Part shown: positions 891 to 28,154 of the stretch, piece by piece | Numbering within the stretch: position 1 is the first letter of the stretch | Layout: every line of letters starts with the position of its first letter | Program-made: the position numbers and the translations under genes | From: Sinorhizobium meliloti | GTDB lineage: Bacteria; Pseudomonadota; Alphaproteobacteria; Rhizobiales; Rhizobiaceae | Reading direction: 5' to 3' | DNA: 32,000 bases | Assembly: GCF_017876815.1 (NCBI RefSeq) | Contig: NZ_JAGIOS010000003.1 | Span: 660,001-692,000 of the forward strand | Notes under the pieces: generated by a model | What the model was told of the DNA's origin: nothing | The model's database searches: none | The model's input: the letters and a program-made list of their open reading frames with translations, nothing else

Positions 891-1098
891 TTGTCGGCAG
901 TGATCGCCGAAATTTCCAATCGGGGGCGCCATGACATTTCCACGGGACGAAGCGGTGAACCTCAAGGAAAGGTCAACACCAATGAAACGACGAGCACTTG
1001 TGTTGGTCGAAGGATCAACGGGTAATGGCCTACTAGACGTGCGCATATGCGGACCCTGGACGCGTGGCGACCAGGCATACGACATTGTCCGTCGCTTT

Positions 1099-1114
1099 TG
1101 TCGGCTTTACGACA
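1099..1114 (+). promoter_or_regulatory. NifA upstream activator sequence (TGT-N10-ACA)
   Basis: TGTcggctttacgACA lies about 100 bp upstream of the sigma-54 promoter at 1200-1215, the usual enhancer distance for NifA-dependent promoters. Confidence 0.6.
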
Positions 1115-1199
1115 CAGATTGTTCCTCCAACCGTGCGGCCACTTTCCGATCTAACTCTCTGAAAAACAGCCATTAGCATTATTAGTAACTCCCTCGGCC

Positions 1200-1215
1200 T
1201 GGCACGACTTTTGCA
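1200..1215 (+). promoter_or_regulatory. sigma-54 (RpoN) -24/-12 promoter, nifH type
   Basis: TGGCACgacttTTGCA matches TGGCAC-N5-TTGCA exactly. About 80 bp downstream come a nifH-like Shine-Dalgarno (aaaggaag) and nifH start codons. Confidence 0.85.
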
Positions 1216-1295
1216 CGATCAGCCCTGGGCGCGCATGCTGTTGCGCATTCATGTGTCGGAACAATCGAAATAGTTTAAACAACAAAGGAAGCAAG

Positions 1296-1604
1296 ATGGC
1301 AGCTCCGCGTCAGATCGCGTTCTACGGTAAGGGGGGTATCGGCAAGCCCACGCGGAAGGCTGAGCTGGTAACCGCGCCCATCGAAGATCGCAGCCTCGGC
1401 TCTCCGTCAAAAAACGAGGCGCACTTCCACAGCCGCATGAACGTCATGGCTAACATGCGCGGCGGCCACGGCTTCCGCGTTCCATCCGCAGCTTCAAGGA
1501 AGGCAATTAAACACAAATGGAAAGGTCAACCACTGCCGAAGAAAGCGCTGATTCTGCTTGAAGGCACTAAAATGGGTACTGGTCAGCCGCCAGTGGCGTC
1601 ATGA
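1296..1604 (+). pseudogene. Chimeric ORF1: the first ~18 codons of the nitrogenase iron-protein gene nifH fused to unrelated sequence
   Basis: MAAPRQIAFYGKGGIGK(P)T reproduces the NifH N-terminus up to the start of the P-loop. Similarity then stops (RKAELVTAPIEDRS...), whereas a real NifH is roughly 295 aa. ATG 1296 is preceded by aaaggaag. The track start at 1251 is only an upstream in-frame ATG. Confidence 0.7.
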
Positions 1605-1732
1605 TCAGCGACTCCTCCGACCACCGCTTCGATGCAATGCCGTTTGGCGGTTTCAAATATGACGGCATGGACCGCGAGGGCGTCCGATTTGCCTCTGAGG
1701 ACATGACGCAGCCGAAGGTGGTGTGCATCAAC
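1571..1732 (+). pseudogene. C-terminal remnant of an aldehyde dehydrogenase-family gene
   Basis: [47 protein letters not shown] fits the conserved ALDH C-terminal block (PFGG.K.SG.GREG ... K). The frame opens only after a stop at 1568-1570, and the 400+ aa N-terminal body is absent. Confidence 0.45.
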
Positions 1733-1790
1733 CGCATGAAAACACAGAGCCACGCCTGCTCAAATCCATCCACAACTCAAGGGGCAAAGA

Positions 1791-2669
1791 ATGTTTGAGG
1801 GTTCGATTACCGCGCTTGTCACGCCTTTTGCTGATGATCGCATCGATGAGGTTGCATTGCGCGACCTCGTCGAGTGGCAGATCGAAGAGGGATCCTTCGG
1901 TCTCGTTCCATGCGGGACAACAGGGGAAAGCCCGACGCTCAGCAAATCCGAGCATGAGCAGGTGGTCGAGATCACGATCAAAACCGCAAACGGGCGTGTG
2001 CCCGTCATCGCGGGCGCCGGATCAAACAGCACGGCGGAAGCGATCGCCTTCGTTCGCCATGCGCAGAACGCCGGCGCCGACGGAGTACTGATCGTTTCAC
2101 CCTATTACAACAAGCCCACCCAGGAGGGGATCTACCAGCATTTCAAGGCGATCGATGCTGCGTCTACTGTTCCGATCATCGTCTACAATATCCCTGGCCG
2201 TAGCGCCATTGAAATTCACGTTGAAACGTTGGCCCGCATTTTTGAAGACTGCCCGAATGTGAAGGGCGTCAAGGATGCAACCGGCAACCTGTTGCGCCCG
2301 TCCCTCGAGCGCATGGCCTGCGGGGAAGACTTCAATCTCTTGACCGGTGAAGACGGCACGGCGCTTGGCTATATGGCGCATGGCGGACATGGCTGCATCT
2401 CGGTGACGGCGAATGTCGCACCGGCCCTCTGCGCTGACTTCCAGCAGGCCTGCCTGAACGGCGACTTTGCCGCCGCCTTGAAACTGCAGGACCGTCTGAT
2501 GCCGCTGCACCGGGCGCTTTTTCTTGAAACCAACCCGGCGGGGGCGAAATACGCGCTCCAGCGTCTTGGCCGAATGCGTGGGGATTTGCGCCTACCACTC
2601 GTCACGATCAGTCCTTCCGTTCAAGAAGAGATCGATGACGCGATGCGCCACGCGGGGATCCTTTTATGA
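1791..2669 (+). CDS. mosA: Dihydrodipicolinate synthase-family protein (DapA paralogue, MosA-type), apparently intact
   Basis: 292 aa. Motifs: [31 protein letters not shown] and KDATGN (the Schiff-base Lys region). SD aagggg lies 7 nt before the ATG. The context (nifH promoter/ORF1 upstream, DegT-like gene downstream) matches the published mos locus layout. Confidence 0.85.
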
Positions 2670-2742
2670 TGGACAACGCAAGATTTGCTGAACGCATCGA
2701 GATGGTTCTTATCGGACCGAACAACCAGCGAAGAAAACAAGG

Positions 2743-2758
2743 TGGCACCTGCATGGGA
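2743..2758 (+). promoter_or_regulatory. Degenerate sigma-54-like -24/-12 element (possible fixA-promoter remnant)
   Basis: TGGCACctgcaTGGGA has a perfect -24 half, but the -12 half lacks the GC dinucleotide. It lies ~20 bp upstream of the fixA-like ATG at 2779. Confidence 0.2.
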
Positions 2759-2778
2759 TTGGATTCTGGAGAAACACC

Positions 2779-2924
2779 ATGCACCTCGTAGTCTGTATCA
2801 AGCAGGTGCCGGTTACAGCGCAGACACGCGTCCACCTCGCACGAACACGGTCATGCGGCGGCAGATGCTGCGGACCTCCACCCTTTCGGGTGACACATTC
2901 ATTCACTTTACACCGGAGACTTGA
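2779..2924 (+). pseudogene. fixA: 5' fragment of fixA (electron-transfer flavoprotein beta subunit), frameshifted
   Basis: MHLVVCIKQVP..AQ.RVH is the FixA/EtfB N-terminus. The next conserved block (NTVMRRQ, compare NTIMRQG) appears in a different frame (ORF 2685..2924). The rest of a ~280-aa FixA is absent. Confidence 0.6.
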
Positions 2925-3080
2925 AGCCGTTGCTGACAGGAAATTGAACACGCCAGAAGGATATGGTGAGGCTACCGGACACATGCGAGCTCATCCAAGC
3001 CGCTTGTCGGGACATGGGGGTAATATGCCGCCGCTCGCGGGATGACTGAACTGCCACTGGTCTGACAGAACGGACAGATA

Positions 3081-4062
3081 ATGAAACTCACAATTCGCAT
3101 AAACGGCGACGTCTTGTCAGCGTATATCCCTAAGAAGGACCTGGAGGAGCCGATCATCTCGGTGGAGGATGAAGCCTTGTGGGGCGGCTCGATATTGCTG
3201 AGGAACGGCTGGCGGCTGGCCCTGCCCCACCTTCCGCAGGAAGCTCGCCTGCCGGTTACCGTCGAGGCAAGAAGAATGTCCGGCCGGCTTGATCGAGGTG
3301 CGCATGAAAAACCCGATCGGATGACGAGGATCGGTGAGATCTCAAGCTCCCAAAATGCCGCTGCAATGCTAGCCGAGAACCAAAAGATGCATCCATGGCC
3401 GGCTCTAACGAGAACCGCTTACGAGGATGTCGCCGCATGTATCTCTTCCGGAGAATTATCCGGATCGGGACTGGGCATTATCAATGCGTTCGAGCGGCGC
3501 ATGGAGGAATGGATCGGCGGCGGTTATGTGGTCTCGGCAAGTAGCGGCACAGCCGCCCTGACAGTGGCGCTCATAGCTCTCGGCATCCACCCGGGGGACG
3601 TTGTGCTTCTGCCTTCCTATACCTGGGCTGCCACAGGAGTGGCACCGCTACGTATTGGAGCGATCCCCCGTTTCGTCGACATTGATCCGAATTCCTACAA
3701 CATCTCTCGCGTTGGCGGCTGCGATCACACCGGACGTCAAGGCAATCATCGTGGTCCACATGCACGGCACTAGCTGCGACATGGATGAGATTATTTGCCA
3801 TGCGCGAGAGCAGGGCATTGCGGTCATCGAGGACTGCGTTCAGGCTCATGGCGCACTCTACAAGGGGCAACATGTTGGGCTTCTGTCCGACATCGGATGC
3901 TTCAGCATGCAAAAGAGCAAGCACCTGTCCGCGGGCGATGGCGGATTCATGGTGACAAGCAAGCAAGGTGCGCTGTCATTGAACCCACACGTCCCGAGTT
4001 CATCGAGACGTCATCATGTTGAGGACAGCAGATCGTCAGGCCGTGTGTTCTTGAAATTGTAA
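3081..4062 (+). pseudogene. mosB: mosB-like fusion of a NifT/FixU domain to a DegT/DnrJ/EryC1/StrS-family PLP aminotransferase; frameshifted and 3'-truncated
   Basis: Residues 1-~70 (MKLTIRINGDVLSAYIPKKDLEEPIISVEDEALWGGSILLRNGWRLALP...LPVTVEARRM) are NifT/FixU-like. The DegT blocks follow (SASSGTAALTVALIALGIHPGDVVLLPSYTWAAT, FVDIDPNSYNIS). The reading frame switches near 3705-3712 into ORF 3601..4062 (AITPDVKAIIVVHMHG...CFSMQKSKHLSAGDGGFMVT, the PLP-Lys region). Similarity ends about 3965, so roughly half of a normal DegT domain is missing. Confidence 0.7.
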
Positions 4063-4082
4063 TCGCATAGAATGGAACAGCG

Positions 4083-5090
4083 ATGGAATTGAAACGCCCC
4101 TTTTTATTGTTCCTCGGAGACGCGGCCGACGACCTGGCTGTCAAGACAGCAGCCGGCATCGCACACTGGCGCAAAAGCTGGTGCGTCGGCCAATGGAGGC
4201 TCAGCGGGTGCAAGGCCGATGTCCACCTGAATGACATGTCGCCGAGCGACGCGAAAGCCCAGGGGGCCGAAACCATGATTGTCGCCGTAGCCAATGCGGG
4301 CGGCATCCTCAAGGAAAGCTGGATGAGCAGCATCGTTGAGGCGTTGGAGGCCGGACTCGATGTCGCCTCCGGCCTCCATGTGACACTTGAGGCTATTCCG
4401 GCAATTGCTGCTGCAGCCAAGCGCAACGGGCGCAGCCTTCACAACGTGCGCATCCCCGATCGCGCATTTTCGACGGGCAAGGGCACCAAACGTCGTGGCA
4501 ATCGCCTCCTGACAGTCGGAACCGACTGCTCCGTCGGAAAGAAGTACACCGCGCTCAGTCTTGAAGCCGCGATGCGCGCTAAGGGCTGGGATGCTGACTT
4601 CCGCGCCACTGGCCAAACCGGCATATTCATTTCCGGGCGGGGGGTTGCCGTCGATGCAGTGGTGGCCGATTTCATCTCGGGCGCCGCAGAGTGGATTAGT
4701 CCCGACGCGGAAACCGACTGTCATTGGGATCTCGTCGAGGGTCAGGGCTCCCTCTTCCACCCGAGCTTCGCTGGCGTCTCCCTTGGCCTCTTACATGGAT
4801 CGCAGCCCGACGTATTCGTAGTCTGTCACGAACCGACGCGCAAGACCATGCGTGGCGTGCAGGCACCGATACCAACCATCCGCGATGTCATCGACCTGAC
4901 GATTGCATGCGGACGGCTGACGAACCCTTTCATCAAATGTGTAGGCATCGCCGCCAATACCGAGGCCCTTAACGAAAAGGAGGCCCGCGACTATCTGGCG
5001 TCTCTGACCAGGGAATACGATCTTCCGGCCACGGACCCGCTCAGGTTCGGTGTCGACGTTATCCTGGAGAGGATCCAATATCAGCGGTGA
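4083..5090 (+). CDS. DUF1611-family protein (DgcN-like putative N-acetyltransferase)
   Basis: 335 aa. The blocks LLTVGTDCSVGKKYTALSL, ATGQTGIFISGRGVAVDAVVADFISGAAE, VEGQGSLFHPSFAGVSLGLLHGSQPD and ATDPLRFG are characteristic of DUF1611. Confidence 0.75.
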   Translation: MELKRPFLLFLGDAADDLAVKTAAGIAHWRKSWCVGQWRLSGCKADVHLNDMSPSDAKAQGAETMIVAVANAGGILKESWMSSIVEALEAGLDVASGLHVTLEAIPAIAAAAKRNGRSLHNVRIPDRAFSTGKGTKRRGNRLLTVGTDCSVGKKYTALSLEAAMRAKGWDADFRATGQTGIFISGRGVAVDAVVADFISGAAEWISPDAETDCHWDLVEGQGSLFHPSFAGVSLGLLHGSQPDVFVVCHEPTRKTMRGVQAPIPTIRDVIDLTIACGRLTNPFIKCVGIAANTEALNEKEARDYLASLTREYDLPATDPLRFGVDVILERIQYQR

Positions 5091-5309
5091 TGGTGGCGTG
5101 GATCTGGACGGCGGCATCGCTTAGGCCCATGCGCGGGCAATGCCACGCGACGCTCACGCCGGGAAGGCTTTCAAAGCGCATCCGTGCGCTCGCTGCACAA
5201 AAGCGAACTGGCACGGTTTGTGCCATTTATCCCCACGAGGCACCACGAGGGGCTGCGGCGATGCCGTTCCCTTTAACCCGAGTGTCTCGTCCTAGTTGGA
5301 GACCAAGCT

Positions 5310-6003
5310 ATGTCATACAAAACACTTCCAACGAGTGCTCCAGTCTTGCAAATGGACTCTCTGGCGCCTGCACTCAAAGTGCGGGACTGGATACGTGGCA
5401 AATCCTTGCGAGCTTCCAGCCGGGCAAATTGTACATCCGCGAGTTTTGTGGAACCTCGTGTGAATCTTGTGAGGGTGCGATGCACAATCTGATAGAGCTG
5501 CAGGAGACTTACAAGAACAGTGGAGTTGGGGCCGTCGCAGTTGTGGCAGAAGAAAGCGCTGCATTCGTCGGGGAGGCTCTGGACTTTGGGACGCGTGGTG
5601 GGCCGGTTCCCGAAGTCGAACCTGCGGGTCGCGCTCGACGACACAGGCACAATGAACACGGTTTGATGGAGGCGAGTTTTTCTGTCGAGATCCCGAAGGC
5701 GTTGGTGGTCGACCGAGACGGCTACATCGCCTCTATCGGCCATCCGAACGACCTGCATGGCGTTCTATGCTTGATGGCACCTGGCGCACCAGCGCTCAAG
5801 CGAAAGCCGCCGAAAGGGAGCGGATCGCCGAAGATGAACCAAAAGCGGCCAAGGAAGCATCGAAGAAGCAGATCAAGGCAAATTTGGCGGCAGCGGAGGA
5901 GATAGAGGATTTGAACACGGCGCTTGATGCGATCGAAGAGGGCGTCGCCCTTGATCCGGTTAACTTTTTTCCGCGAGGCTCATGTCCACCTGCTGCTCCA
6001 TGA
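5310..6003 (+). pseudogene. Thioredoxin-fold (TlpA/redoxin-like) thiol:disulfide oxidoreductase gene with at least two frameshifts and a degraded CXXC motif
   Basis: Homology runs through three frames. ORF 5310: APALKVRDWIRGKSL. ORF 5087 frame: GKLYIREFCGTSCESC...LIELQETYKNSGVGAVAV...IPKALVVDRDGYIASIGHPNDL. ORF 5767 frame: LDGTW... . The expected FWATWCGPC motif reads FCGTSCESC. Confidence 0.55.
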
Positions 6004-6283
6004 AAATGCACGACAGGCAGGCCGGTCTGCCCGCGCTACGCCAATCGATTCGCGGCGCAATCAACACAAACAACGAGTTAATGTTGACGGTGGCATCTTT
6101 CCGACTCTTCAACCCGGCACCCCTGCACCGGCTCTGGCATGCGCTTTATGTCCATCGGCTGAACCCCAGCGAACAAGGGCATTGCCGAGCTCGACGTGCT
6201 GGCCGAGGGTTGGCGCAAACATGCGGTGTGGCGGCAGGAGAGCGGCCGGGTCGAGGACTGGCGCAAGAGACTGGAGGGCACCG

Positions 6284-7135
6284 ATGACTCCTCCCCCTTT
6301 CGTGATTTCCATCCAGAGCCAGGTCGTATTTGGTCATGTCGGCAATTCGGCAGCCCTGTTCCCCATGCAGGCGGCGGGGCTGGAAGTGGCGGCAATTCCG
6401 ACGGTGATCTTTTCGAATACGCCCAATTACCCAACTCAGCACGGACGTGCGCTGCCGCCCGAGTTCTTTTCGGATCTGTTGCAGGGCGCACGGGAACGGG
6501 GCCTGACAGAACGGGCGGATTTTATCCTGACGGGCTATATCGGCTCGCTCGACGTGGCGCTGATGGTGGCGGATTTCGTGGCGGAGGCAAAGGCCGTGAA
6601 CCCAGCCCTCATATACCTCTGCGACCCGGTGATGGGCGATACGGACCCTGGCCTCTATGTGCCGGAAGCCATTGCCGACGTGATGCGTGACCGGTTGCTG
6701 CCGATGGCCGACATCGCAACACCGAACCCGTTCGAACTGAGTTGGTTGACCGAGCGAAAAGTCGCGACTACTTGGGACCTGGAAGCGGCACGACAGATTT
6801 TGCGCTTTGCGCCAGAGGCTCAATTGATCACCACCGGCTGCGCGCTGGAAGATACCACTCCTGGTCAGATCGAAAGCGTCATCCTGGGGCCCGAGGGTAT
6901 CATCAGCCGCCATCCGACGAAGCGTCTCCCAATCGGCCTGCCTGGCACTGGTGATCTCTTCGCCGGATTGATAGTCGCGGGGCTGGCGCGCGGGGTGCCC
7001 CTGCCCCGCGCAGTCGAGATTGCGCAGAACCTCACCTCCCGCGCACTAGATCACGCCAATGCACTTGGCGCCGGTGAAGTAGTCCTCAGCGAGCCAGAAT
7101 TCCGCCGCGCGCTTGTGGCGCTCGATCCAAATTGA
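6284..7135 (+). CDS. pdxY: Pyridoxal/pyridoxamine kinase (PdxY/PdxK family, ribokinase superfamily)
   Basis: IQSQVVFGHVGNSAALFPMQAAG..., ILTGYIGS, YLCDPVMGD and LPGTGDLFAGL are typical pyridoxal kinase blocks. ATG 6284 is preceded by ggaggg. The 120-codon upstream extension of the track ORF (5924) shows no family similarity. Confidence 0.85.
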   Translation: MTPPPFVISIQSQVVFGHVGNSAALFPMQAAGLEVAAIPTVIFSNTPNYPTQHGRALPPEFFSDLLQGARERGLTERADFILTGYIGSLDVALMVADFVAEAKAVNPALIYLCDPVMGDTDPGLYVPEAIADVMRDRLLPMADIATPNPFELSWLTERKVATTWDLEAARQILRFAPEAQLITTGCALEDTTPGQIESVILGPEGIISRHPTKRLPIGLPGTGDLFAGLIVAGLARGVPLPRAVEIAQNLTSRALDHANALGAGEVVLSEPEFRRALVALDPN

Positions 7136-7434
7136 GCTCCGTGGCACCCTCATGGCAACGGATCCAACGTCATCGTCAACCGTTGCATGCAAGTTGCAGA
7201 TCAGGAGATCGCTTGCGAACTTTCCGCGCAGCTCAAGTGAAGCCACGCAAATTGAAACGGTTTCAGGGAGAAGGCGGCGATTGGAAGATGATAGCGGCAA
7301 GAGATTGTCGATGAGCGTGACGCCGGGGCAACGGGGACTGTGCAGTAAATGCCCTTCTAACCGTTCCGCCTATGAGGAAGACCCATTCTTTCGGGATGCC
7401 GCTGCTCGTGAGCTCTAGCAGGCCGTTGAAGAAG

Positions 7435-7779
7435 TCAGTCGCGTTCGCAGACGAAGCCTGAATCGTCTCCGTTGTGGACGTAGAAGTGCCCGACAAGTCG
7501 TCCGGCGGAGCCGAGAGCTGCCCATCCGCGACCACAGACCCGGTCGCTCTCGTCTTGTCCCTCCCATGAGAACTCCGCACAGGCTGATCCATCGCGTGCG
7601 CCGTAGCGGACATCGAGAAAGCCCTTGAGCGCGACGAACGCGATTTCGCCGTCCGCCGTGCCCTGGAATGTCAGATGCGCCTCTTCGACGAGATCGAGGA
7701 CGTCGTTGTCCCAGTTGTCCATCTCGACGATGCGCCAACGACCGGCGAAGGCCTTGGCGAAGGGAGAAACTCTCGCCAT
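7435..7779 (-). CDS. 114-aa passenger ORF of unknown function inside the IS5-family element
   Basis: Its ATG overlaps the transposase stop (ctgATGg, TGATG overlap at 7779). Its stop (7435-7437) lies inside the terminal inverted repeat. No family recognised (MARVSPFAKAFAGRWRIVEMDNWDNDVLDLVEE...SWEGQDESDRVCGRGWA...GHFYVHNGDDSGFVCERD). Confidence 0.55.
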   Translation of the reverse strand: MARVSPFAKAFAGRWRIVEMDNWDNDVLDLVEEAHLTFQGTADGEIAFVALKGFLDVRYGARDGSACAEFSWEGQDESDRVCGRGWAALGSAGRLVGHFYVHNGDDSGFVCERD

Positions 7780-8884
7780 CAGCCTGTCTCCGTCATGAGC
7801 TTCGGCAGCCGCACCAGATCATAGGCGGCGGCCGCGAAGGTGAAGGCCCATCGGACGCGGTCGCGGCCACGGAACTTCGTCTTATCCTGCCCGGCGACGG
7901 TTTTGATCCAGCCGAACGCCCCTCCTCGATGCGCTTGCGGATGCGCAAGCTGACCCGATAGCCGGAATGGCACGTCGTGCGTCCATCAATGGCCGAGCGG
8001 CGACCATTGATGTTCTGCGCCACATGGGGCGTGACCTTCATCGACCGCAAATCTTTTACGAAGTCCTTTGTGTCATAGGCCTTGTCGACACCCAGCGTGA
8101 TCGCTTGTGTCCGCTCAGTGAAGGGCCCGATCATGTGCAACGCCGCGACCCGTTCGGCATACCCGCTGGCCTCTGTCAGATAGGCATCGACCAGCAGGCC
8201 ATGGCGATTTTCCATCAGCCCATGCCCCATGAAGCACAGCTTGGCCTCCTTGCCTTTTCCCTTCCTATAAAGCTTCGCATCCGGATCGGTCGTTGAAGCA
8301 TGCGTCTCGTTGGAGCGTCTCTCGCCATGGAAGTCTGCTTCCTTATTCCGACCGCCCGCATCCGACGGTGGTTCGCCATGATCGCCCCTGGGGCCGTCCT
8401 TCGGCTTGAAGCTCTTGATCGACGCCCAAGCTTCGATCAGCGTGCCATCGACAGAGAAGTGGTCCGTTGACAGCAACCGCTTTACTTTGGGCTGCGAAAG
8501 GATTGCGACCAGGAACTTCGCGGCGATGTCGCCTTCCAGCAACCGGTCGCGGTTCTTCGAAAACACCGAATGGTCCCAAGCTGGATCGTCAATGCCAAGG
8601 CCAACGAACCAGCGGAACAGAAGGTCGTATTCCAGCCGCTCCATCAAAAGCCGCTCAGAGCGGATCGGATAGATGGCTTGCAAAAGCATGGCGCGCAGAA
8701 GCTTCTCAGGCGCGATCGACGGCCGCGTGATCGGTGAATAAAGTGCTGCCAAATCTCGTTCCAGTGAAACGAGCGCTTCGTTCACGATCTGCCGGATAGC
8801 CCGTAGAGGATGATCTTTTCGAACACGATCCTCCAGATCAACATAGCTGAAGAGTTCGCCTGTCCTCACATCGCCGCCGCGCAT
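7779..8884 (-). pseudogene. IS5-family (DUF772 N-terminal domain + DDE) transposase with one frameshift near its 3' end
   Basis: N-terminal blocks: GELFSYVDLEDRVRKDHPLRAIR and LLRAMLLQAIYPIRSERLLMERLEYDLLFRWFVGL. C-terminus: SLRIRKRIEEG, then a frame switch at the C/G run about 7918-7925 into ORF 7779..7973 (AFGWIKTVAGQDKTKFRGRDRVRWAFTFAAAAYDLVRLPKLM), the normal family ending. Confidence 0.8.
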
Positions 8885-9022
8885 CCATCAGCTCCAAATC
8901 GCAGTAAAGCGAGTGAATCACGACCAGAACCTATGCGCCAGGGCCCTTTTTCAACAGCCTGCTAGTAGACCCGTCGCCGGTCCGCTTGACCTTATAGAGC
9001 AGAGAAAACCAATCGTGGACGC

Positions 9023-9679
9023 TCAGTCCCAATTGTTCGAGGTGGGACGCCAGCGTCTTTGCTGGGTCACCGCCCCCGGCGCTGTAACTCGGAAGGGACA
9101 GATTATCGTCGCCCAATGGAAAAAGCGCACCGTGGCGCTCAACACCGCGGCGGCGCCGATCTCTCCGCCCGCTGCAGAGGAATTGGCCTTTGCCGCGACT
9201 CTCGGAGTGAAGTAGCCGCCGCGAGCATAGCCCAGACCATTCAAGCCGCTGCTTTCGAAGGCTGTCACGCGACCGACCATCATGACATGGTCGCCCGCCT
9301 CGATAACATCATGCATCGAACATTCAAACCACGCCGCCACCTGCGCGAATATCGGACAGCCGTTCGGACCCCTCGCCCGGTCGACAGCAGCGAAGCGATC
9401 TTCGGCGGGGCGGGCAAATTTAATGGACACATCCTTCTGCGCCTCTGACAATATGTTGATGGCGAAGTGCTCGGCTGCGGTCATTGCTGGGTAGTCGCGC
9501 GCAGTCTTGGCAAGGCAAACAAGCAGCAGCGGCGGATCCAAGGATACAGATGTAAAGGAGTTGGCAGTGAAACCAACCGGCCTGCCCGCCGGATCGCTGG
9601 CGGTGATGACCGTCACTGCGGTTGGAAACGCTCCAAACGCCTCGCGCAAAGCTCTCGGGTCGAAAACGTCCGCCTTCAT
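9023..9679 (-). CDS. stc4: Flavin reductase-domain protein (stc4-like component of the stachydrine demethylase system) with an unassigned ~55-aa C-terminal tail
   Basis: LREAFGAFPTAVTVITA...GFTANSFTSVSLDPPLLLVCL...FAINILSE...DRF forms a flavin-reductase-like domain of about 160 aa. A strong SD (agggggaa) precedes the ATG. The gene is last in the order Rieske oxygenase, reductase, flavin reductase. Confidence 0.7.
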   Translation of the reverse strand: MKADVFDPRALREAFGAFPTAVTVITASDPAGRPVGFTANSFTSVSLDPPLLLVCLAKTARDYPAMTAAEHFAINILSEAQKDVSIKFARPAEDRFAAVDRARGPNGCPIFAQVAAWFECSMHDVIEAGDHVMMVGRVTAFESSGLNGLGYARGGYFTPRVAAKANSSAAGGEIGAAAVLSATVRFFHWATIICPFRVTAPGAVTQQRRWRPTSNNWD

Positions 9680-9981
9680 GTCATTCCCCCTTTGCGCGCC
9701 AGAAATCTCGCGATCGTTGCGTTAACGGTTTCCGCCGTTAGATTCTCATTTGCCTGGACTGGCGCGGGCCGCCAACGAGAGGGCCTTTCTGTCAACTTGA
9801 GACCTCCAGCACTTCCCTGCGTATTCGAGCGGCCATCGGTAGCCCTCTTCTAGATTACGTATTATGGTATTCCATGATACTAACCTGTCAAGCGGCTCTT
9901 CGCTGTGGGAGCCTCAACTCACCAGCTTCCCGGCAAGTTGTTGTGCCGAGTGTGCCGCAACTGATGGTCCCGATTCAGGAG

Positions 9982-11042
9982 CTATGCCTCGACGCTTACG
10001 CGTCCCAACGGCTTCGAGCAGCAGGCGAGGATATAACCGTCCTCGACATCCTCATCCGTGATGCCGCCATTGTGCACCATGTGGACCTGGCCCTCGGTCT
10101 TGCGCACCTTACAGGTGCCGCAGATCCCCATCGAGCAGCCCGACGGGATCACCAGCCCTGCAGCCTTTGCCGCCGCCAGTATCGTGTCCGTCTCGCTGCA
10201 TCTGGTCGTGACGCCGGAGAGGGCGAAGGCGATCTCGGCATGGTTCTGCTCATCGGGGATCACATCCTCGGGGACGTCTTCGGCATGCCCCGGCTCCGCC
10301 GTGAAGCTCTCCTGATGGTAGCGGCTCATATCGTAGCCAAGTCCGGCAAGCGCCTCGCGGACGGCCCGCATAAAGGGCTCCGGACCGCAGCAGAACACTT
10401 CGCGCTCGAGATAATCCTGCGCCATCAGGCCGAGCATGATCTGATTGAACATGCCCCGGTAGCCGGTCCAGGGCCGGAACGGGTCTGGCTCTTCGACCAC
10501 CCATTTCAGGTCGATGCCGACGATGCGCGACGCCATGAGTTCCATCCTGTCGCGCAGAATGATCTCGGAGGGTCGGCGCGCGCAATTGATGAAGACAATG
10601 TCCGGCTCGCGTCCGGAATCGTAGAGCCAGGTGGTCATCGCCACCATCGGGGTGATGCCCGAGCCGGCCGAGATGAACAGGTATTTATCAGTCGGGTGAT
10701 GCACGATCGAGAATTTTCCCGCCGGCCCGATAGCCCTGATGCGCATGCCCTATGCAGATTGTCCAGCATCCACCGTGTGCCGGTGGACCCGTCCTGCGCT
10801 TTGACCGTGATCGTCAGTGCGGTTGGCCGCGAGGGTGCAGAAGAGATGGTATAGGTGCGATAGAGCGGTCCGCCCGGCGCGGGCAGTTCCAGAGTGACGA
10901 ACTGCCCCGGATCATGGTTGAACAGCGCCCCGGAAGGACTTTGAAAGCTGAAGGTCACCACATTGGGAGCTTCCGGCGTGCGCGTGACGCATTCAAGCGG
11001 CTCGGCATCACTCCAGAAACTGAGCTGCTTGAACTGGGTCAT
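9982..11042 (-). pseudogene. stc3: Ferredoxin-NAD(P) reductase-type FAD/NAD-binding + plant-type [2Fe-2S] reductase (stc3/GbcB-like), interrupted by a frameshift
   Basis: The N-terminal part starts at ATG 11042 (MTQFKQLSFWSDAEPLECV...RTYTISS...GSTGTRWMLDNLH) in the frame of ORF 10635..11216. The remainder is ORF 9982..10746 (MRIRAIGPAGKF...ISAGSGITP...CCGP...CSMGICGTCKVRK...ACC). The frames differ by 1 nt, with the switch at about 10744-10752. The repaired length of ~353 aa is normal for the family. Confidence 0.8.
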
Positions 11043-11046
11043 CTGC

Positions 11047-12312
<1,266 letters not shown>

Positions 12313-12371
12313 TCAGATCAATCATGCTTGCAAACCGGACCGTCTGGCAATAGCGTTAAATTTCACTTTGG

Positions 12372-12386
12372 ATTAGCTGAAATAAT
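12372..12386. promoter_or_regulatory. Candidate LysR box (T-N11-A with ATTA/TAAT arms) in the divergent stc2/lysR intergenic region
   Basis: ATTAgctgaaaTAAT lies about 45 bp upstream of the regulator start and about 90 bp from stc2. This is a pattern match only. Confidence 0.2.
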
Positions 12387-12432
12387 CTCAAAGCCTACCC
12401 ACTCCTGCGGGAGAACATATAACGGGACCCTT

Positions 12433-13311
12433 ATGCCACGCCCTTATGAATTCTCTTCGATGACCGCCCTCGTCTGCTTCGAGGCGGCGGCGCGAAATGC
12501 GAGCTTCAAGAAAGCCGCTCAAGAGCTGAATGTGACGCCAGCGGCCATCAGCCACCAGATCAAGGCACTGGAGATGGACCTCAAATGCAGCCTGTTCCTG
12601 CGCCACCACCGCGGTGTCGAACTGACCGAGAAGGGAGCGCTCCTCTTCGTGGTCATTCAACGCGGCTTCGAGGCTATCTCGGAAACTCTTACCCAGATCC
12701 GCGAGCGCCCCGAAACCGTCGACGTGACCATCGGCGCGACTACGGCGTTCAGTTCACTCTGGCTGACCCCGAAGATTTCGGCCTTCTGGAAGATCCATCC
12801 CTCCATCACCGTGTCACAGGTCGTCAGTGATGTGCCTGGAATGACCAGCCGTTGCGATCTGACTATCCATTACGGCAACCCGCAGGAGAACGGCGTAGAA
12901 TACAGGAAACTCTTTCAGGACCACATTATCGCGCTGGGAACGACACGATTTGCCGCCGAGCACCGCATTGCCCGGCTCGAGGATCTGCTCAAAGCACCCT
13001 TGATCCATTCCAGCAGCAACGAGACCGGTTGGACGGCCTGGGACGATTGGTTTGCCGTACTCGGATGTCCGGCCCCGAAGGGCCGCAGTTTTTACGTCAA
13101 CAATTACATGATCGCACTTCAGGCGGCTCAAGACGATGTCGGGGCCGTACTTGGGTGGGACGGGCTCGTCGGGAGCCTCGTCAACGAAGGGCGGCTAGTC
13201 AAGCTCGTGCAAGAAAGCATTCCCTCACCTGTCGGCTTTCATCTGAGGATCCATTCGCGCGCAACGGCAAAGGCGCGGCTGTTCGCCGACTGGCTAGTCG
13301 AAGCCACCTAA
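12433..13311 (+). CDS. LysR-family (GcvA-like) transcriptional regulator, divergent from the stc2 operon
   Basis: The N-terminal HTH reads TALVCFEAAARNASFKKAAQELNVTPAAISHQIKALEMDLKCSLFLRHHRGVELTEKG, followed by a LysR substrate-binding domain. ATG 12433 gives the usual spacing before the HTH. The track start at 12259 is an upstream alternative. Confidence 0.85.
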   Translation: MPRPYEFSSMTALVCFEAAARNASFKKAAQELNVTPAAISHQIKALEMDLKCSLFLRHHRGVELTEKGALLFVVIQRGFEAISETLTQIRERPETVDVTIGATTAFSSLWLTPKISAFWKIHPSITVSQVVSDVPGMTSRCDLTIHYGNPQENGVEYRKLFQDHIIALGTTRFAAEHRIARLEDLLKAPLIHSSSNETGWTAWDDWFAVLGCPAPKGRSFYVNNYMIALQAAQDDVGAVLGWDGLVGSLVNEGRLVKLVQESIPSPVGFHLRIHSRATAKARLFADWLVEAT

Positions 13312-15437: not shown

Positions 15438-15734
15438 ATGGCAAGCACCAATTTCCGTCCGCTGCACGACCGCGTTGTCGTCCGCCGCGTCGAGTCTGAA
15501 GAAAAGACCAAGGGCGGCATCATCATTCCGGACACCGCTAAGGAAAAGCCGCAGGAAGGCGAAATCGTGGCTGTCGGTTCGGGTGCCCGTGACGAAAGCG
15601 GCAAGGTTGTTCCGCTCGACGTCAAGGCTGGCGACCGCATCCTGTTCGGCAAGTGGTCCGGCACCGAAGTCAAGATCAACGGCGAAGACCTTCTGATCAT
15701 GAAGGAAGCCGACATCATGGGTGTCATCGGCTGA
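15438..15734 (+). CDS. groES: Co-chaperonin GroES
   Basis: 98 aa: [42 protein letters not shown]...[11 protein letters not shown] gaggga. Confidence 0.97.
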
Positions 15735-15768
15735 TCGGCCGGCAACCCTTCAAACTTCCGCAATTTGA

Positions 15769-17448
<1,680 letters not shown>

Positions 17449-17486
17449 TAAGGCGACAGCCTTAGCACGATCCATCCGGATCCGAA

Positions 17487-17512
17487 GGGCGGCGCTCGGG
17501 CCGCCCTTTTTT
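17487..17512 (+). terminator. Rho-independent terminator of groESL
   Basis: GGGCGGC-gctcgg-GCCGCCC followed by TTTTTT, about 40 bp after the groEL stop. Confidence 0.8.
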
Positions 17513-18306
17513 GTACGCAACAAAGAGACGCGAGCGATCTCGTTGAGACAGGTCGATCCGACGCTGCATCATACGGTCTGCTGGCCACCTTCGTGGATGT
17601 GAATCTCTGGCATGATGATAGCCGGGCGGGCCGTCAGCCTGCCCGGCGGCCGGCTGTCGGATCGTCACCTTCCAAGCCGCAGGCGCCGTGGGGGAGCGGC
17701 ACCACAGCCGGATCTTCGTCTGACCCGTGCGGTTGCCGGAACTTTGAGGCTTGTATCCAAGACAGGAGCGATGACGCGAGGTCCAGGGAAGGGAAGGATC
17801 ATCAATATGAAGGCAGGGTACAACCGAAACTCTGAAGCAGGAATCTTCTAGACTCCAGCTTCGAGTTGCGAGGGGGGCGTTATGCCGAACGCGATATCTG
17901 TTCCAAATCCTAAGGGAGGTCTCGCGCGGTCAAGACGCTGATAAGCCATCGAGGCACGAAGCCGGCTGTTACTCTCGTCGCAAGGAGCCGCGTATCCGGC
18001 AGAATGGAAAGCGGTCCTTTCGACGGAAGGTACAAGCCTCCCCAAGCGTTGGCGAATACTCCTCAGATTGTACAATTACTCCGGGTGATTTGTTTGAGGT
18101 ATATCTTCGAAATCGTTGACGATGAGGGGCAGAGTCGCGCGTATGTCGCCTCACACATGTATCGCAAAGCAGATAAACTGATCGTGCTTCATCGAGGTGC
18201 GGAAGTCGGCATCGACATATGTCGGATTTGCGACTGGTGCGCAGTCGACGAGGACGAAGCGCAACGGGCGGGGACCGCCCAAACTGGTTGGCTGCATGAT
18301 TGTTGA

Positions 18307-18512: not shown

Positions 18513-19445
18513 GAGTCGGACTCGAAAAGGTTTCAACGATATCCATATCTTGCAAGGCGTCTGGTGAGCATGCGGATGTGAGCGATGGTGATCCACGCTT
18601 CTGCTGAAGCGACGGATTTTTCGAAGTCCTTGGCCAGTCTGCGGCATCGACCCAGCCAGGCGAAGGTCCGCTCGACGACCCAGCGGCGCGGCAGGATTTC
18701 AAAACCCTTGGCCTTGTCGGAACGTTTGATGATTTCGAGTGTCCATTTCCCGATTTTCTGCAGCCGCTTTTTGAGCTTGTCGCCCGCATAGCCGCCATCA
18801 GCGAAGACATGAAGCAACCACGGCCACCGGTTTTTGATGGATTTCAGGAGATCGGGAGCGCCGTCGCGATCCTGAATATCGGCGCTGTGCACCATGAGGC
18901 CGACCATCAGCCCGAGCGTGTCGACAATGATGTGGCGCTTGCGGCCCTTAATCTTCTTGCCTGCATCAAAGCCACGGATACCGCCGCTTTCCGTCGTTTT
19001 AACGCTTTGGCTGTCGATCGCGCCCGCTGTCGGCGAGGCTTCTTTCCCCTCCAATTCCCGCGCCTCCATGACGAGGTGATGGTTGATCCGTGGCCAAAGA
19101 CCCATTGCCCGCCATTCATAGAAATATCGCTGCACCGTCGAACAGGGCGGAAAGTCCTTCGGCAGCATCCGCCACTGGCAGCCTGTCGAAGCGATATAGA
19201 GAAGGGCGTTTAAAACATCGCGCAAATCAGTCTTGCGCGGACGACCCAGACGCCGTGGCGCAGGCATGAACGGTGCAACAAAATCCCATTCGCGATCCGT
19301 GACATCGCTTGCATATCCGCTCGTCCGCCGGACATAATTGCGCCGGGTGGTTTCAGTCCAGGCCATCGTGATCTCCATCGAATCTTTGCAAATCCGACGG
19401 AATCACAACTGGCTGAAATCACTCAATTCTTTTTGAGGCAGCCTC
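18513..19445 (-). mobile_element. Complete IS5-family (IS427-like group) insertion sequence, 933 bp
   Basis: Imperfect terminal inverted repeats: GAGTCGGACTCGAAAAGG (18513-) against the reverse complement of the 19445 end, GAGGCTGCCTCAAAAAGA (about 16 of 25 positions). TTA(G) sits on both flanks (18510-18512 and 19446-19448). A single intact transposase ORF fills the element. Confidence 0.7.
18533..19366 (-). CDS. IS5-family (IS427-like) DDE transposase, intact
   Basis: MAWTETTRRNYVRR..YASDVTDREWDFVAPFMP...GRPRKTDLRDVLNALLYIASTGCQWRMLPKDFPP..TVQRYFYEWR...DSQSVKT...GKKIKGRKRHIIVDT...ADGGYAG...VERTFAWLGRCRRLAKDFE. ATG 19366 is preceded by ggaga. The alternative ATG at 19378 adds 4 aa. Confidence 0.9.
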   Translation of the reverse strand: MAWTETTRRNYVRRTSGYASDVTDREWDFVAPFMPAPRRLGRPRKTDLRDVLNALLYIASTGCQWRMLPKDFPPCSTVQRYFYEWRAMGLWPRINHHLVMEARELEGKEASPTAGAIDSQSVKTTESGGIRGFDAGKKIKGRKRHIIVDTLGLMVGLMVHSADIQDRDGAPDLLKSIKNRWPWLLHVFADGGYAGDKLKKRLQKIGKWTLEIIKRSDKAKGFEILPRRWVVERTFAWLGRCRRLAKDFEKSVASAEAWITIAHIRMLTRRLARYGYR

Positions 19446-24957: not shown

Positions 24958-25569
24958 TTAAACTGAACTGGGATAATCGCCGGTGATGAGGACGGGGCGA
25001 GAGGCTGGCTCTGCGCGCTTCTTTATCCGCTTGCACAGAAGGTTCGCGTTGACCCGATGTTCGAGCGCAAGTCTCGCTACCGATGCGAATGGCTCAAGGC
25101 AGGCCGCGACGAGGCGGTTCTTCGATGCGGGGTCGTATCGACATCGCCCGTGCCGACCTACAAGCCCTATCGGCAGTTGCTGATAATCGTCTTCCAACAT
25201 CTCGACGCATTGGCCGTCCGTGGCGATGACATATGACCATCCGCCGACCCTCTCATGCATGAAGGAGAGAGGCGACTCTTCAGTCCAGCCATGATTTCGG
25301 ACCCTGAAGGTTATCCTTCCCGGACGTGGAGCCTGCGCATCGGCGCGCCCCACAATTCCAGCAATCCTCTTCATCCAGGAGGCTGAACGTATGGCATCGG
25401 CATCGATCCGGAACCGGTCTTCTCCAGAGATCACTTCAACCGAACGGCTACGAAGTTCATTGGAGCGCGGCTCCTGTGTTCCGGCGGTAACTCGATGTGT
25501 CCTGTAGGAGAGCGACAGGATTTGGACATCCATGTCGCAGAATGCCGTATTCCAGCGATCGAACCGCAA
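24958..25569 (-). pseudogene. Chimeric ORF: AraC-type ligand-binding-like N-terminal fragment joined to an IS66/IS3-type TnpA (HTH_Tnp_1-like) fragment
   Basis: The C-terminal GRCRYDPASKNRLVAACLEPFASVARLALEHRVNANLLCKRIKK fits the pattern RRYs.efK..vV..cl.PGaSVa.vA..HgvNANLl..W of IS accessory TnpA proteins. The N-terminal RFDRWNTAFCDMDV... loosely resembles AraC_binding_2-type regulators. The start is TTG and there is no AraC HTH. Confidence 0.35.
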
Positions 25570-26444: not shown

Positions 26445-28154
26445 TCAGACGCCGAAGAGCGAGGTGGGCAGGCCGCGCTCACCGGGATTGCAGGCAAAAA
26501 TGCCGCCGGAGAGCGGTGCTTCCGTCAGCGTTGAGGCCGGGAGACGGGTGCGCGCACTGGTGATGAACAAAGTCGCAAGCTCGTCCCCGCCGAAGGCAAC
26601 GCTGGTGGGGCGCGGCACTGGCAGTTCGACGGCTCGATCCAGCCGGCCATCTGGGCGATAGCGGTTCACGCGCCATCCGTCCCAGATCGCACACCAGACC
26701 CCGCCATCGGCATCGACAGCAAGACCGTCCGGGCGCCCTTCCGCCTCGGGCACCGTAACGAAGACACGGCGGTTGGCGATGCTCCCCTCGCGTGCATCGA
26801 AGTCGTAGGCATAGATGATGCCCGGCACCGTATCGACGAAGTAAAAGGTCGAACTGTCCGGACTCCAGGCCAGCCCGTTGGCGACCGTGAACCCGCTCCC
26901 GGCGCGGGTTACTTCGCCGGCACTCGTAAGGCGATAAAGGCTGCCGGTCGGGCGGCTCACGTCGAGCCGCATCGATCCCACCCAAAGGCGGCCGCTCGGA
27001 TCGACTTTGGCGTCATTCAGGCGGTTTTCCGGCAACCCGGGTTCCGGCTCGGCGAAGGGGTTGAAGTCGCCGCGGTCGAAATCGAAGTGCTCGACGCCAT
27101 CCTGGGAGGCGACGATCAGTCCCTCATTCCGCGTCGGAAGGACAGCACTGACGAGTTTGGCGACGTTACAGCTCTCGTTCTTACCAGTGACGGGGTCGAA
27201 GCGGTGCACAGCCGGATGCAGGATGTCCACCCAATAGAGCCGCTTCTCCCTTTCGACCCAAACTGGCGCTTCTCCGAGCTGAGCGCCCCAGGGCAAGACG
27301 CATTGCACGTCGCTGAAGCCCCCCGAGCGCGTGCGGGGGCGTGGTCCAGAGCTGATCGCAACCGCCCCGACCGTGCCAGTGATCCGTCGCGCCGCCGCCA
27401 TCAACTCGCGCCCAGCCGGATGGATGGCGGAACTGTCGAGGCGGGAAGCCGGCCCAAGCACGACGAGTGCGCCGAGTGGCACTCCATCGCGCCCGGCGAT
27501 CGGAGCAGCGACGGAATTGACCCCGGCCAGATGCTCCTCGTAGGAAACGGCGTAGCCGCGGGCACGTGTCAGAACGAGATCGGCCTCCAGCGCCTGCGAA
27601 TCCGTGATGGTGTTTGGCGTAAATCGATCATATGTGATCTGCCCCGCCAGCGACCGGGCGAAAGACGGCTCCTGAAACGCAAGCAGGACCTTGCCGGCCG
27701 CAGTGCAATGAACCGGCACGCGCCGGCCGACCTCGATCAACACGCCCAAGCCACCGCTTGACCGCTCTTCCAGATAGACCACGCGCTGACCGTCCAGCCG
27801 GCAAAGCGCAACCGTCTCTCCGAGCTCGCTCGCAAGGCGATCGAGTTCGGGGATGGCGGCGCTGACGAGGTCGAATTTGTCCCACACCCGATGTGAGAGC
27901 TCGACAAAACGGTGGCCGAGCAGATAGGCCCCCGTGGTCTCGTCCTGGCGGATCAGCCGGAAGACCATCAGCGTCTTGAGCATGCGCGCAAGCGTTGGCT
28001 TCGGCACACCACTCATTTTCTGCAGATCGGCGAAGCGCAGCGGTTTCGGCGCCTCAGCTATGAGGTCGAGGAGAGCAAGCCCCTTGGCGAGCGCTGCCGC
28101 CCCCGCCGGCGCACCGCGATCCTCCAGCCCGCCTAAGCCTGCCTTATCGTCCAT
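26445..28154 (-). CDS. Single-ORF fusion of an IclR-family transcriptional regulator (N-terminal ~270 aa) and an SMP-30/gluconolactonase/LRE-like lactonase (C-terminal ~290 aa)
   Basis: IclR part: LAKGLALLDLIAEAPKPLRFADLQKMSGVPKPTLARMLKTL (wHTH), then the effector domain ...VPVHCTAAGKVLLAF...ITD...GYAVSYEEHLAGVNSVAAPI. After the linker SSGPRPRTRSGG comes the SMP-30 part: LGEAPVWVEREKRLYWVDIL...NDAKVDPSGRLWVGSM...ANGLAWSPD...PDGLAVDADGGVWCA...FGGDELATLFITSA. The 569 codons contain no stop. Confidence 0.85.
   Translation of the reverse strand: MDDKAGLGGLEDRGAPAGAAALAKGLALLDLIAEAPKPLRFADLQKMSGVPKPTLARMLKTLMVFRLIRQDETTGAYLLGHRFVELSHRVWDKFDLVSAAIPELDRLASELGETVALCRLDGQRVVYLEERSSGGLGVLIEVGRRVPVHCTAAGKVLLAFQEPSFARSLAGQITYDRFTPNTITDSQALEADLVLTRARGYAVSYEEHLAGVNSVAAPIAGRDGVPLGALVVLGPASRLDSSAIHPAGRELMAAARRITGTVGAVAISSGPRPRTRSGGFSDVQCVLPWGAQLGEAPVWVEREKRLYWVDILHPAVHRFDPVTGKNESCNVAKLVSAVLPTRNEGLIVASQDGVEHFDFDRGDFNPFAEPEPGLPENRLNDAKVDPSGRLWVGSMRLDVSRPTGSLYRLTSAGEVTRAGSGFTVANGLAWSPDSSTFYFVDTVPGIIYAYDFDAREGSIANRRVFVTVPEAEGRPDGLAVDADGGVWCAIWDGWRVNRYRPDGRLDRAVELPVPRPTSVAFGGDELATLFITSARTRLPASTLTEAPLSGGIFACNPGERGLPTSLFGV

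Follow-up and report, generated by a model that had tools for sequence, protein, structure and literature searches.

Here, we have analyzed 32,000 nucleotides of Sinorhizobium meliloti DNA (contig NZ_JAGIOS010000003.1, positions 660,001 to 692,000; the whole stretch is hereafter called the window) and found that positions 1076 to 3959 very probably represent a pseudogenized operon for rhizopine synthesis (mos) under the control of NifA and sigma-54, located on a symbiotic plasmid pSymA of the SM11 or RU11/001 type. Window positions 900-4300 were 100% identical to RU11/001 pSymA (NZ_CP021217.1) and to SM11 pSmeSM11c (NC_017327.1) in blastn searches of plasmid records. The locus is a pseudogenized copy, in a publicly annotated genome, of a system known since 1993. 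Literature searches revealed no explicit description of the SM11 mos remnant (matches to "mosA" were the word "mosaic"). It should be noted that SM11 is listed among the wild-type strains of a study in which putative rhizopine loci, defined as a MosB homolog plus mosA or mosC, were surveyed (Geddes et al., 2019; PMC6668481), and the SM11 locus may have been examined there.

The components of the locus, all on the + strand, are as follows.

1076-1587, + strand: nifH-promoter cassette, comprising an upstream activator sequence (UAS), a sigma-54 promoter, the nifH leader, nifH codons 1-19, a conserved linker and an ATP-grasp 5' stub
1099-1114, + strand: NifA UAS, TGT-N10-ACA, about 100 nt 5' of the -24 element and kept in all cassette copies
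1200-1215, + strand: sigma-54 -24/-12 promoter TGGCACGACTTTTGCA, an exact match conserved in cassette copies
1296-1604 (alternative start 1251), + strand: ORF1, a chimeric open reading frame (ORF) of nifH codons 1-19, linker and about 17 ATP-grasp codons, which then runs out of frame into the next element
1592-1750 (approximate), + strand: aldehyde dehydrogenase (ALDH) 3' stub, the last ~50 codons; its stop codon is lost and the frame continues to 1798
1791-2669, + strand: mosA, intact, encoding a dihydrodipicolinate synthase (DHDPS) of 292 aa (Pfam DHDPS, E=2.5e-91)
2666-2719, + strand: aspartate ammonia-lyase (aspartase) 5' stub of 18 codons, which travelled with mosA
2752-2857, + strand: fixA leader and first 26 codons (MHLVVCIKQVP...), 76-86% identical by blastn to annotated fixA 5' ends
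3081-3959, + strand: mosB pseudogene, in which a NifT-like domain (3081-3269) is followed, as a fusion, by a DegT-type aminotransferase; the Pfam matches to NifT and DegT fall in two frames
3960-4082, + strand: junction segment, of which 3960-4029 is untraced and 4030-4082 is the native dgcN upstream region, shared with strain M270
4083-5090, + strand: intact gene for a DUF1611/DgcN-type N-acetyltransferase (dgcN; Pfam DUF1611_N and DUF1611), which occupies the place of mosC

The assignment to mos was first supported by mosA. Its product scored above the equivalog cut-off for dapA (TIGR00674, 333.7 bits versus 206.15) in a full-length match over residues 4-287, and 289 of its 292 residues (99%) were identical to PDB entry 2VC6, which we take to be the MosA of strain L5-30; this entry is said to come from Phenix and colleagues in 2008, a reference cited in PMC6668481. 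The L5-30 mosA forward primer oxp0024 (PMC6668481), which contains ATGTTTGAGGGTTCGATTAC, matched window positions 1791-1810 exactly. Second, an L5-30-type mos locus on pSymA of strain T073 (positions 7994-10884) was collinear with window 1076-3959 in a single 2.9-kb block (97.8% identity) whose internal junctions coincide, and this extent of collinearity with an intact locus shows that the arrangement is no product of chance. Both loci contain the nifH promoter/ORF1 cassette, the ALDH stub, mosA, the aspartase stub, the fixA stub and the NifT-DegT start of mosB. Thus, the gene order described in a first-pass annotation of this DNA, which had proposed a decayed mos-type mosaic locus from the letters alone, agreed with that of intact loci, including the nifH promoter and the nifH-derived ORF1 (with its UAS, sigma-54 site and nifH codons 1-19) that are collinear with ORF1 of T073.

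Past the collinear block, T073 continues with the rest of mosB (whose complete product is a NifT-DegT protein of 507 aa), mosC (a major facilitator superfamily (MFS) transporter), mosD, mosE and mosF, and mocCABRDEF-like catabolic genes adjoin mos loci of this type. In contrast, the window has a 5-bp frameshift in mosB and lacks the last 214 mosB codons, mosC-F and the adjacent moc genes; dgcN, a tlpA-like remnant and pdxY are found instead. In strain RCAM1115, the genes annotated 3' of mosB encode an MFS transporter, a gluconate 2-dehydrogenase subunit 3, a GMC oxidoreductase and a cytochrome c, and therefore fit the published description of MosC plus MosDEF (PMC6668481). The mosC reverse primer (PMC6668481) matched the predicted mosC stop in T073 and RCAM1115, whereas neither the window nor the 33-kb SM11 locus contained a match. 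Because MosA, the primers, collinearity and the downstream genes all agree, T073-type loci can be regarded as intact mos loci of the L5-30 type.

Base-by-base alignment with T073 revealed two lesions in mosB. In the first, the CGACT of T073 is missing between positions 3708 and 3709, which shifts the frame after codon 209. In the second, similarity to T073 stops after position 3959 (...GGTGACAAG), corresponding to codon 293 of 507. The domain matches are split in the same way: ORF 3081-3773 contains the NifT match (residues 1-63, E=4.8e-23) followed by DegT positions 7-101, and DegT positions 104-187 continue in another frame (ORF 3601-4062). The motif with the predicted pyridoxal phosphate-binding lysine (FSMQKSKH) lies 3' of the frameshift, out of frame, and the C-terminal domain is absent. 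In strain ml46, the mosB region aligns with that of the window with no 5-bp offset between the two and is annotated by the Prokaryotic Genome Annotation Pipeline (PGAP) as two split DegT coding sequences (CDSs). A look-up of protein clusters gave no protein explicitly named MosB or MosC, and the PGAP name for MosB is "putative nitrogen fixation protein NifT".

The break at 3959 is also present in ml46 and in the RCAM1750 lineage. Among the compared loci, the 70 nucleotides that follow it (3960-4029) matched only loci that have this junction too. An internal repeat search yielded short pairs at chance level and no repeats on either side of the junction. It had been claimed that mosB was both frameshifted and truncated and that no mosC followed it; both statements were borne out by the T073 alignment, by dgcN standing in that place and by the distribution of mosC DNA. 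Using megablast, the segment from the mosB 3' end to mosF was found in only eight plasmid records, none of them from SM11 or RU11/001 (the mos and moc searches covered the plasmid records of these two strains). At the level of at least 98% identity, the moc cluster, a search for which had been proposed as a check, was confined to the same eight records and was likewise absent from SM11 and RU11/001, although RU11/001 carries mocDEF-like genes of only ~82% identity on pSymB, which are also present in strain 2011, a rhizopine-negative relative of strain 1021.

On the basis of these results, we suggest how the locus might behave. In bacteroids, NifA bound at 1099-1114 would activate the sigma-54 promoter at 1200-1215, and a transcript starting near 1226 would run through ORF1 and the ALDH stub into mosA. 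MosA would be translated as an active DHDPS and not as a rhizopine enzyme. The mosB remnant could yield at most a 230-residue peptide of NifT and partial DegT, which, having no catalytic lysine, would be useless. Transcription would probably continue into dgcN, the degraded tlpA-like frame and pdxY; such read-through is plausible because no convincing intrinsic terminator could be identified between 2669 and 7135, where scans for terminators and sigma-70 promoters remained at or below shuffle expectation. As the comparison with T073 shows, a rearrangement removed the last 214 mosB codons together with mosC and mosDEF and joined the remnant to DUF1611/dgcN-tlpA'-pdxY. Since the MosB aminotransferase and the MosDEF ononitol dehydrogenase are missing, neither scyllo-inosamine nor 3-O-methyl-scyllo-inosamine (3-O-MSI) should be made, and rhizopine synthesis would have been lost in a strain with this locus; this is in line with the proposal in the first-pass annotation that the strain probably cannot make rhizopine, given that mosB is broken and mosDEF are absent from the SM11 and RU11/001 plasmid records. 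As for mosA itself, the intact promoter and purifying selection suggest that it is still expressed.

The decayed allele was not restricted to these two strains. Three further pSymA records matched window 900-4300 over its full length at 97.7% identity (99.6% from position 1295 onward in the case of ml46), and a diverged version (92-94%) was present in five S. meliloti records and one S. medicae record. In the plasmid collection as a whole, decayed mos alleles occurred in 11 records and intact mos loci in eight, half of the latter with mosA and half (four) without. Judging from these sequences, the decayed mos allele is old and widespread and not the outcome of a recent private event. The junction between position 3959 and dgcN recurs in the RCAM1750 lineage, which comprises five S. 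meliloti records and is only ~93-97% identical to the window; the mosB remnant of this lineage has kept CGACT and has instead suffered deletions of 1, 4, 1, 1, 147, 1, 3 and 1 bp. Because the two lineages share the junction and differ in the other lesions, the truncation preceded the decay of the remnant, which took its own course in each of the lineages.

A different pattern was observed for the genes on either side of the remnant. Between the window and RCAM1750, identity was 96.9% for mosA and 96.7% for dgcN, versus 92.8% for the mosB remnant and 93.2% for the mosA-mosB spacer, and there was no indel in either mosA or dgcN. The Nei-Gojobori dN/dS was 0.21 for mosA relative to the RCAM1750 lineage (16 synonymous and 11 non-synonymous differences) and 0.29-0.34 for dgcN, values that are based on 27-40 substitutions per gene. 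Both mosA and dgcN look functional and selected, and mosA appears to be kept for a role independent of rhizopine.

A NifA-type promoter is found 5' of mosA by three different routes. SM11 has the full cassette with an element of the IS256 family (IS, insertion sequence) just upstream; ml46 lacks the equivalent of window 1152-1294 and has a PnifH-ATP-grasp unit immediately upstream with no IS; and in RCAM1750, mosA directly follows an ATP-grasp gene. In ml46, the deleted 1152-1294 segment contains the sigma-54 core and the nifH leader, and the NifA UAS is kept (ml46 locus 8690-8705); transcription of mosA there would have to come from the upstream PnifH-ATP-grasp unit.

Several points weigh against a reading of the locus as a dead mos operon. 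Purifying selection on mosA and dgcN suggests that it is not wholly a relic. The link to L5-30 is made through the 2VC6 MosA sequence, two primers and the T073-type gene order, and we infer NifA dependence of the window copy and read-through into dgcN from sequence features. In addition, a copy of mosB-F might exist on the chromosome, as the searches covered plasmid records. To our knowledge, mos loci have been reported solely from the Sym plasmid.

The selection pattern makes it possible, though we consider it somewhat doubtful, that the truncated locus has been repurposed and is maintained as a functional, nodule-specific operon, PnifH-mosA-dgcN(-pdxY). Together with neighboring PnifH genes, this operon would make or modify a compound that derives from aspartate or lysine and has no relation to rhizopine. 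Its partners would be two ATP-grasp enzymes of the L-amino-acid-ligase type and a KamA-like aminomutase, and in other strains an aspartokinase and an aspartate-semialdehyde dehydrogenase. This explanation is compatible with the loss of rhizopine synthesis. It would account for the absence of indels and the low dN/dS (0.21-0.34) in mosA and dgcN while the mosB remnant and the tlpA-like frame are riddled with indels, for the retention of a NifA-type promoter 5' of mosA by a different route in each lineage, and for the fact that the neighboring cassette-driven genes encode amino-acid enzymes; in addition, MosA is a genuine DHDPS, and its part in rhizopine synthesis has been called into question (PMC6668481). 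However, the dN/dS values derive from just 27-40 substitutions per gene. dgcN is also found in unrelated contexts (pEmeLPU88b and M270), so that its adjacency to mosA may be accidental, and the gene sets vary by strain, which argues against a fixed pathway.

A further step, which we regard as unlikely, would be that mosA never was a rhizopine gene and forms part of another accessory pathway on pSymA, one that NifA controls and that consists of genes behind copies of a single cassette. Its members would be the two ATP-grasp enzymes, a KamA-like 2,3-aminomutase, aspartokinase and aspartate-semialdehyde dehydrogenase (in some strains), MosA, the DgcN-type N-acetyltransferase and pyridoxal kinase. 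If so, the product could be specific to nodules and derived from aspartate or lysine, an acylated or peptide-linked beta-amino acid being one example, and the pathway would explain the purifying selection on mosA-dgcN and the three promoter routes in strains that have lost rhizopine synthesis. Searches for literature on the ATP-grasp/aminomutase island and on DgcN gave nothing useful. The only potential for discovery in this locus lies in the question of why mosA-dgcN stays under a NifA-type promoter near cassette-driven amino-acid enzymes.

It is very improbable that the truncated form represents a proto-mos ancestor and that complete mos operons were assembled from it later. The region, with its many gene stubs, is a hot spot of recombination, and the mosA-less locus of strain BL225C did not arise from the L5-30 type by simple deletion, as it keeps 13 more ATP-grasp nucleotides; but mosB stops partway through the DegT fold (at about profile position 187 of 360), has no native stop and carries lineage-specific indels, a signature of truncation and decay, and Rhizobium mos-type loci have complete DegT genes. 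Least probable of all, an assembly or sequencing artefact in mosB, or a functional mos copy elsewhere in the genome, is contradicted by the identical sequence in two independently sequenced complete genomes, by the same lesions in three more at 97.7%, by the two split DegT CDSs annotated in ml46 and by the plasmid records of SM11 and RU11/001, none of which contained a full-length mosB, the mosB 3' end, mosCDEF or moc.

This reading has practical consequences. Strains of the SM11/RU11 type could be recorded as rhizopine non-producers and non-catabolizers that carry a mos relic, and probes for mosA or 5'-mosB would score them falsely as "mos-positive", which matters for surveys and for work on rhizopine signaling. 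In addition, the selective retention of mosA after the loss of mosB-F is a separate, evolutionary argument in favor of the conclusion, already published on biochemical grounds, that MosA is no rhizopine enzyme.

With regard to the promoter region, position 1076 is the left limit of homology to intact mos loci, and the sequence at 1200-1215 was the sole exact sigma-54 -24/-12 match in the 32-kb window. The nifH piece consists of the leader and the first 19 nifH codons, which lie at 1296-1352 inside ORF1: the ORF1 N-terminus MAAPRQIAFYGKGGIGK matched Pfam Fer4_NifH positions 1-23, and blastn matches of ORF1 to annotated nifH genes stopped at 1352. ORF1 also showed 76% amino-acid identity to the N-terminal extension of an ATP-grasp ORF in M270, and the 16-residue peptide of its ATP-grasp start (1535-1587) matched the start of an ml46 ATP-grasp CDS. 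Cassette copies with 80-92% identity were found upstream of ATP-grasp, asd and other genes in ml46, RCAM1750, M270, T073 and SM11, and the full 1076-1587 cassette recurred 5' of intact ATP-grasp genes in ml46, M270, RCAM1750 and SM11. This ~510-bp unit is present in several copies per pSymA (SM11 locus 2428-2697 and 6096-6368; ml46 locus 2613-2895 and 6304-6820; M270 locus 3158-3679 and 8340-8793). The genes behind the copies vary by strain and include ATP-grasp genes of the L-amino-acid-ligase type, a KamA-like 2,3-aminomutase, aspartate-semialdehyde dehydrogenase with an amino-acid kinase, and an ATP-grasp-MFS fusion ORF. These cassette-driven genes may form an uncharacterized nodule-specific amino-acid pathway.

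The stubs around mosA could each be traced to a source gene. The ALDH stub matched Pfam Aldedh positions 424-461, its peptide aligned with the C-terminal ~50 residues of ALDH, and it was 88% identical at the nucleotide level to the ALDH-dapA cluster of Rhizobium leguminosarum pRLN3. For the aspartase stub, the nucleotide match to Rhizobium plasmids ran to 2719 over an annotated aspartate ammonia-lyase gene, and its 18-residue peptide aligned with MDRTKLAERIESDLIGP. Matches to the fixA stub were found in many rhizobial plasmids, strain 1021 included. The first-pass annotation had recognized both the ALDH and the fixA stubs; the former, placed by it at 1571-1732, extends from about 1592 to 1750 with read-through to 1798, and the latter, given as 2779-2924, corresponds to 2752-2857, the end at 2924 being a chance extension of the ORF. 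Its view of a patchwork of at least four gene pieces was sound, though the list lacked two ATP-grasp 5' stubs and the aspartase 5' stub. On the other hand, the ALDH and fixA stubs cannot be taken as features of decay, because intact mos loci carry them: in T073, they stand at the same positions, and the alignment over 1076-3959 has no large gaps.

Additional features flank the locus.

1-879, + strand: 3' part of an IS256/Mutator-family insertion sequence (transposase fragment 143-832; Pfam Transposase_mut, E=1.1e-91)
931-1035, + strand: 5' stub (35 codons) of a third ATP-grasp paralog, cut off just 5' of the promoter cassette
5087-5905, + strand: degraded TlpA/redoxin-like frame, a probable pseudogene between dgcN and pdxY (weak Pfam Redoxin match)
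6284-7135, + strand: pdxY, pyridoxal kinase (TIGR00687, 193.5 bits versus a cut-off of 144.5), annotated as pdxY in ml46 and RCAM1750

The 931-1035 stub was 93% identical at the nucleotide level to M270 locus 5218-5373, and its peptide MTFPRDEAVNLKERSTPMKRRALVLVEGSTGNG equals the N-terminus of the M270 ORF. A further copy of the IS256/Mutator-family element was located at ml46 locus 1516-2006. The upstream order in SM11 is PnifH-ATP-grasp-KamA-like aminomutase, a serine recombinase/IS66 insertion, a second ATP-grasp gene and the IS256-family element, which separates this ATP-grasp gene from the mos remnant (up to position 880) in SM11 but not in ml46. Downstream, DgcN scored above the NCBIfam equivalog cut-off (NF041892; 498.8 bits versus 480). 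No dgcA partner gene was seen beside dgcN in the window, and the pathway context of DgcN therefore differs. DgcN-type genes also occur in pEmeLPU88b (12004-13011 of its locus), near aminotransferase and glutamate dehydrogenase genes, and in M270 (locus 11653-13073), behind asd, an amino-acid kinase gene and a truncated glutamate dehydrogenase gene. The tlpA-like frame was 81-85% identical at the nucleotide level to annotated TlpA genes and showed indels relative to RCAM1750. Six ORFs on the minus strand or in other frames (2097-2510, 3571-3966, 3947-4426, 2685-2924, 1723-2091 and 777-1085) matched no Pfam family and were rejected as shadows of + strand genes.

The region 3' of pdxY contains IS elements, flavin reductase, Rieske oxygenase and LysR genes, where ml46 has an annotated stachydrine demethylase, followed farther downstream by a groEL copy, more IS elements, a sugar-related dehydrogenase, IclR-gluconolactonase, an epimerase and ABC transporter genes. 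No mos or moc gene was present among the surrounding genes on either side, and no Rfam family was detected in the whole window at gathering thresholds. IS elements or fragments lie at 1-879, 7793-8884, 18533-19378 and 24958-25569 (IS256/Mutator, IS1182-like, IS5-like and an HTH_Tnp_1 fragment). A 569-aa ORF at 26445-28154 (- strand) combines HTH_IclR, IclR_C and SMP-30/gluconolactonase domains and is either a fusion or two adjacent genes in one frame. The megaplasmid groEL (Cpn60) copy occupies 15811-17448 and is accompanied by a long antisense shadow ORF (15724-17523).

The L5-30 mos operon was reportedly described by Murphy and colleagues in 1993 as ORF1-mosABC. It was later extended to mosDEF, which encode a three-subunit ononitol dehydrogenase needed for 3-O-MSI (Geddes et al., 2019; PMC6668481). 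According to the same study, 3-O-MSI synthesis requires MosB and MosDEF but not mosA, the role of MosA being questioned, and every 3-O-MSI producer carried mosBCDEF (PMC6668481). A second intact type lacks mosA; in the passages of PMC6668481 that cite Rao et al. (1995), the mos locus of Rm220-3 is of this kind. In BL225C, RCAM1115 and two other strains, the mosA-less type has the same cassette and the same 5' part of mosB (96% amino-acid identity) and lacks window 1588-2821, that is, the ALDH stub, mosA, the aspartase stub and half of the fixA stub, while mosB-F and moc are complete. The window shows the opposite state, with mosA kept and mosB-F missing. In the mosA-less loci, the ATP-grasp stub is joined to the middle of the fixA stub (their locus 9690-9790 versus window 1550-1600 and 2800-2860). 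A simple deletion of mosA from the L5-30 type could be ruled out as the origin of the BL225C type, since the 13 extra ATP-grasp nucleotides are kept there, and the two intact types are therefore independent derivatives.

More distant relatives point to the sources of the operon. R. leguminosarum plasmids (for example, pRLN3) have a cluster encoding, in this order, homoserine dehydrogenase, ALDH, DapA, aspartate ammonia-lyase and a phosphotransferase (locus 5735-9500). Window 1595-2719 was 84-89% identical at the nucleotide level to its ALDH 3' end, dapA and aspartase 5' end, and its DapA fell into the same 90% protein cluster as MosA. The R. leguminosarum cluster has complete flanking genes and no nifH promoter, whereas in the window only dapA is whole, and its control is by NifA. 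Better and colleagues reportedly described in 1983 that symbiotic promoters of the nifH/fixA type are duplicated on S. meliloti pSymA. These promoters have the same UAS, sigma-54 core and nifH leader as the window cassette, which additionally includes 19 nifH codons, a linker of ~180 nt and an ATP-grasp start, and which drives accessory genes and not nif/fix. The ATP-grasp and aspartase stubs suggest that recombination into a PnifH::ATP-grasp unit that was already present gave rise to the operon, and the stubs likewise point to a Rhizobium-type ALDH-dapA-aspA cluster as the source of the dapA block. Thus, the operon appears to have been built by the insertion of a captured dapA block and a fixA'-nifT-DegT segment into such a unit.

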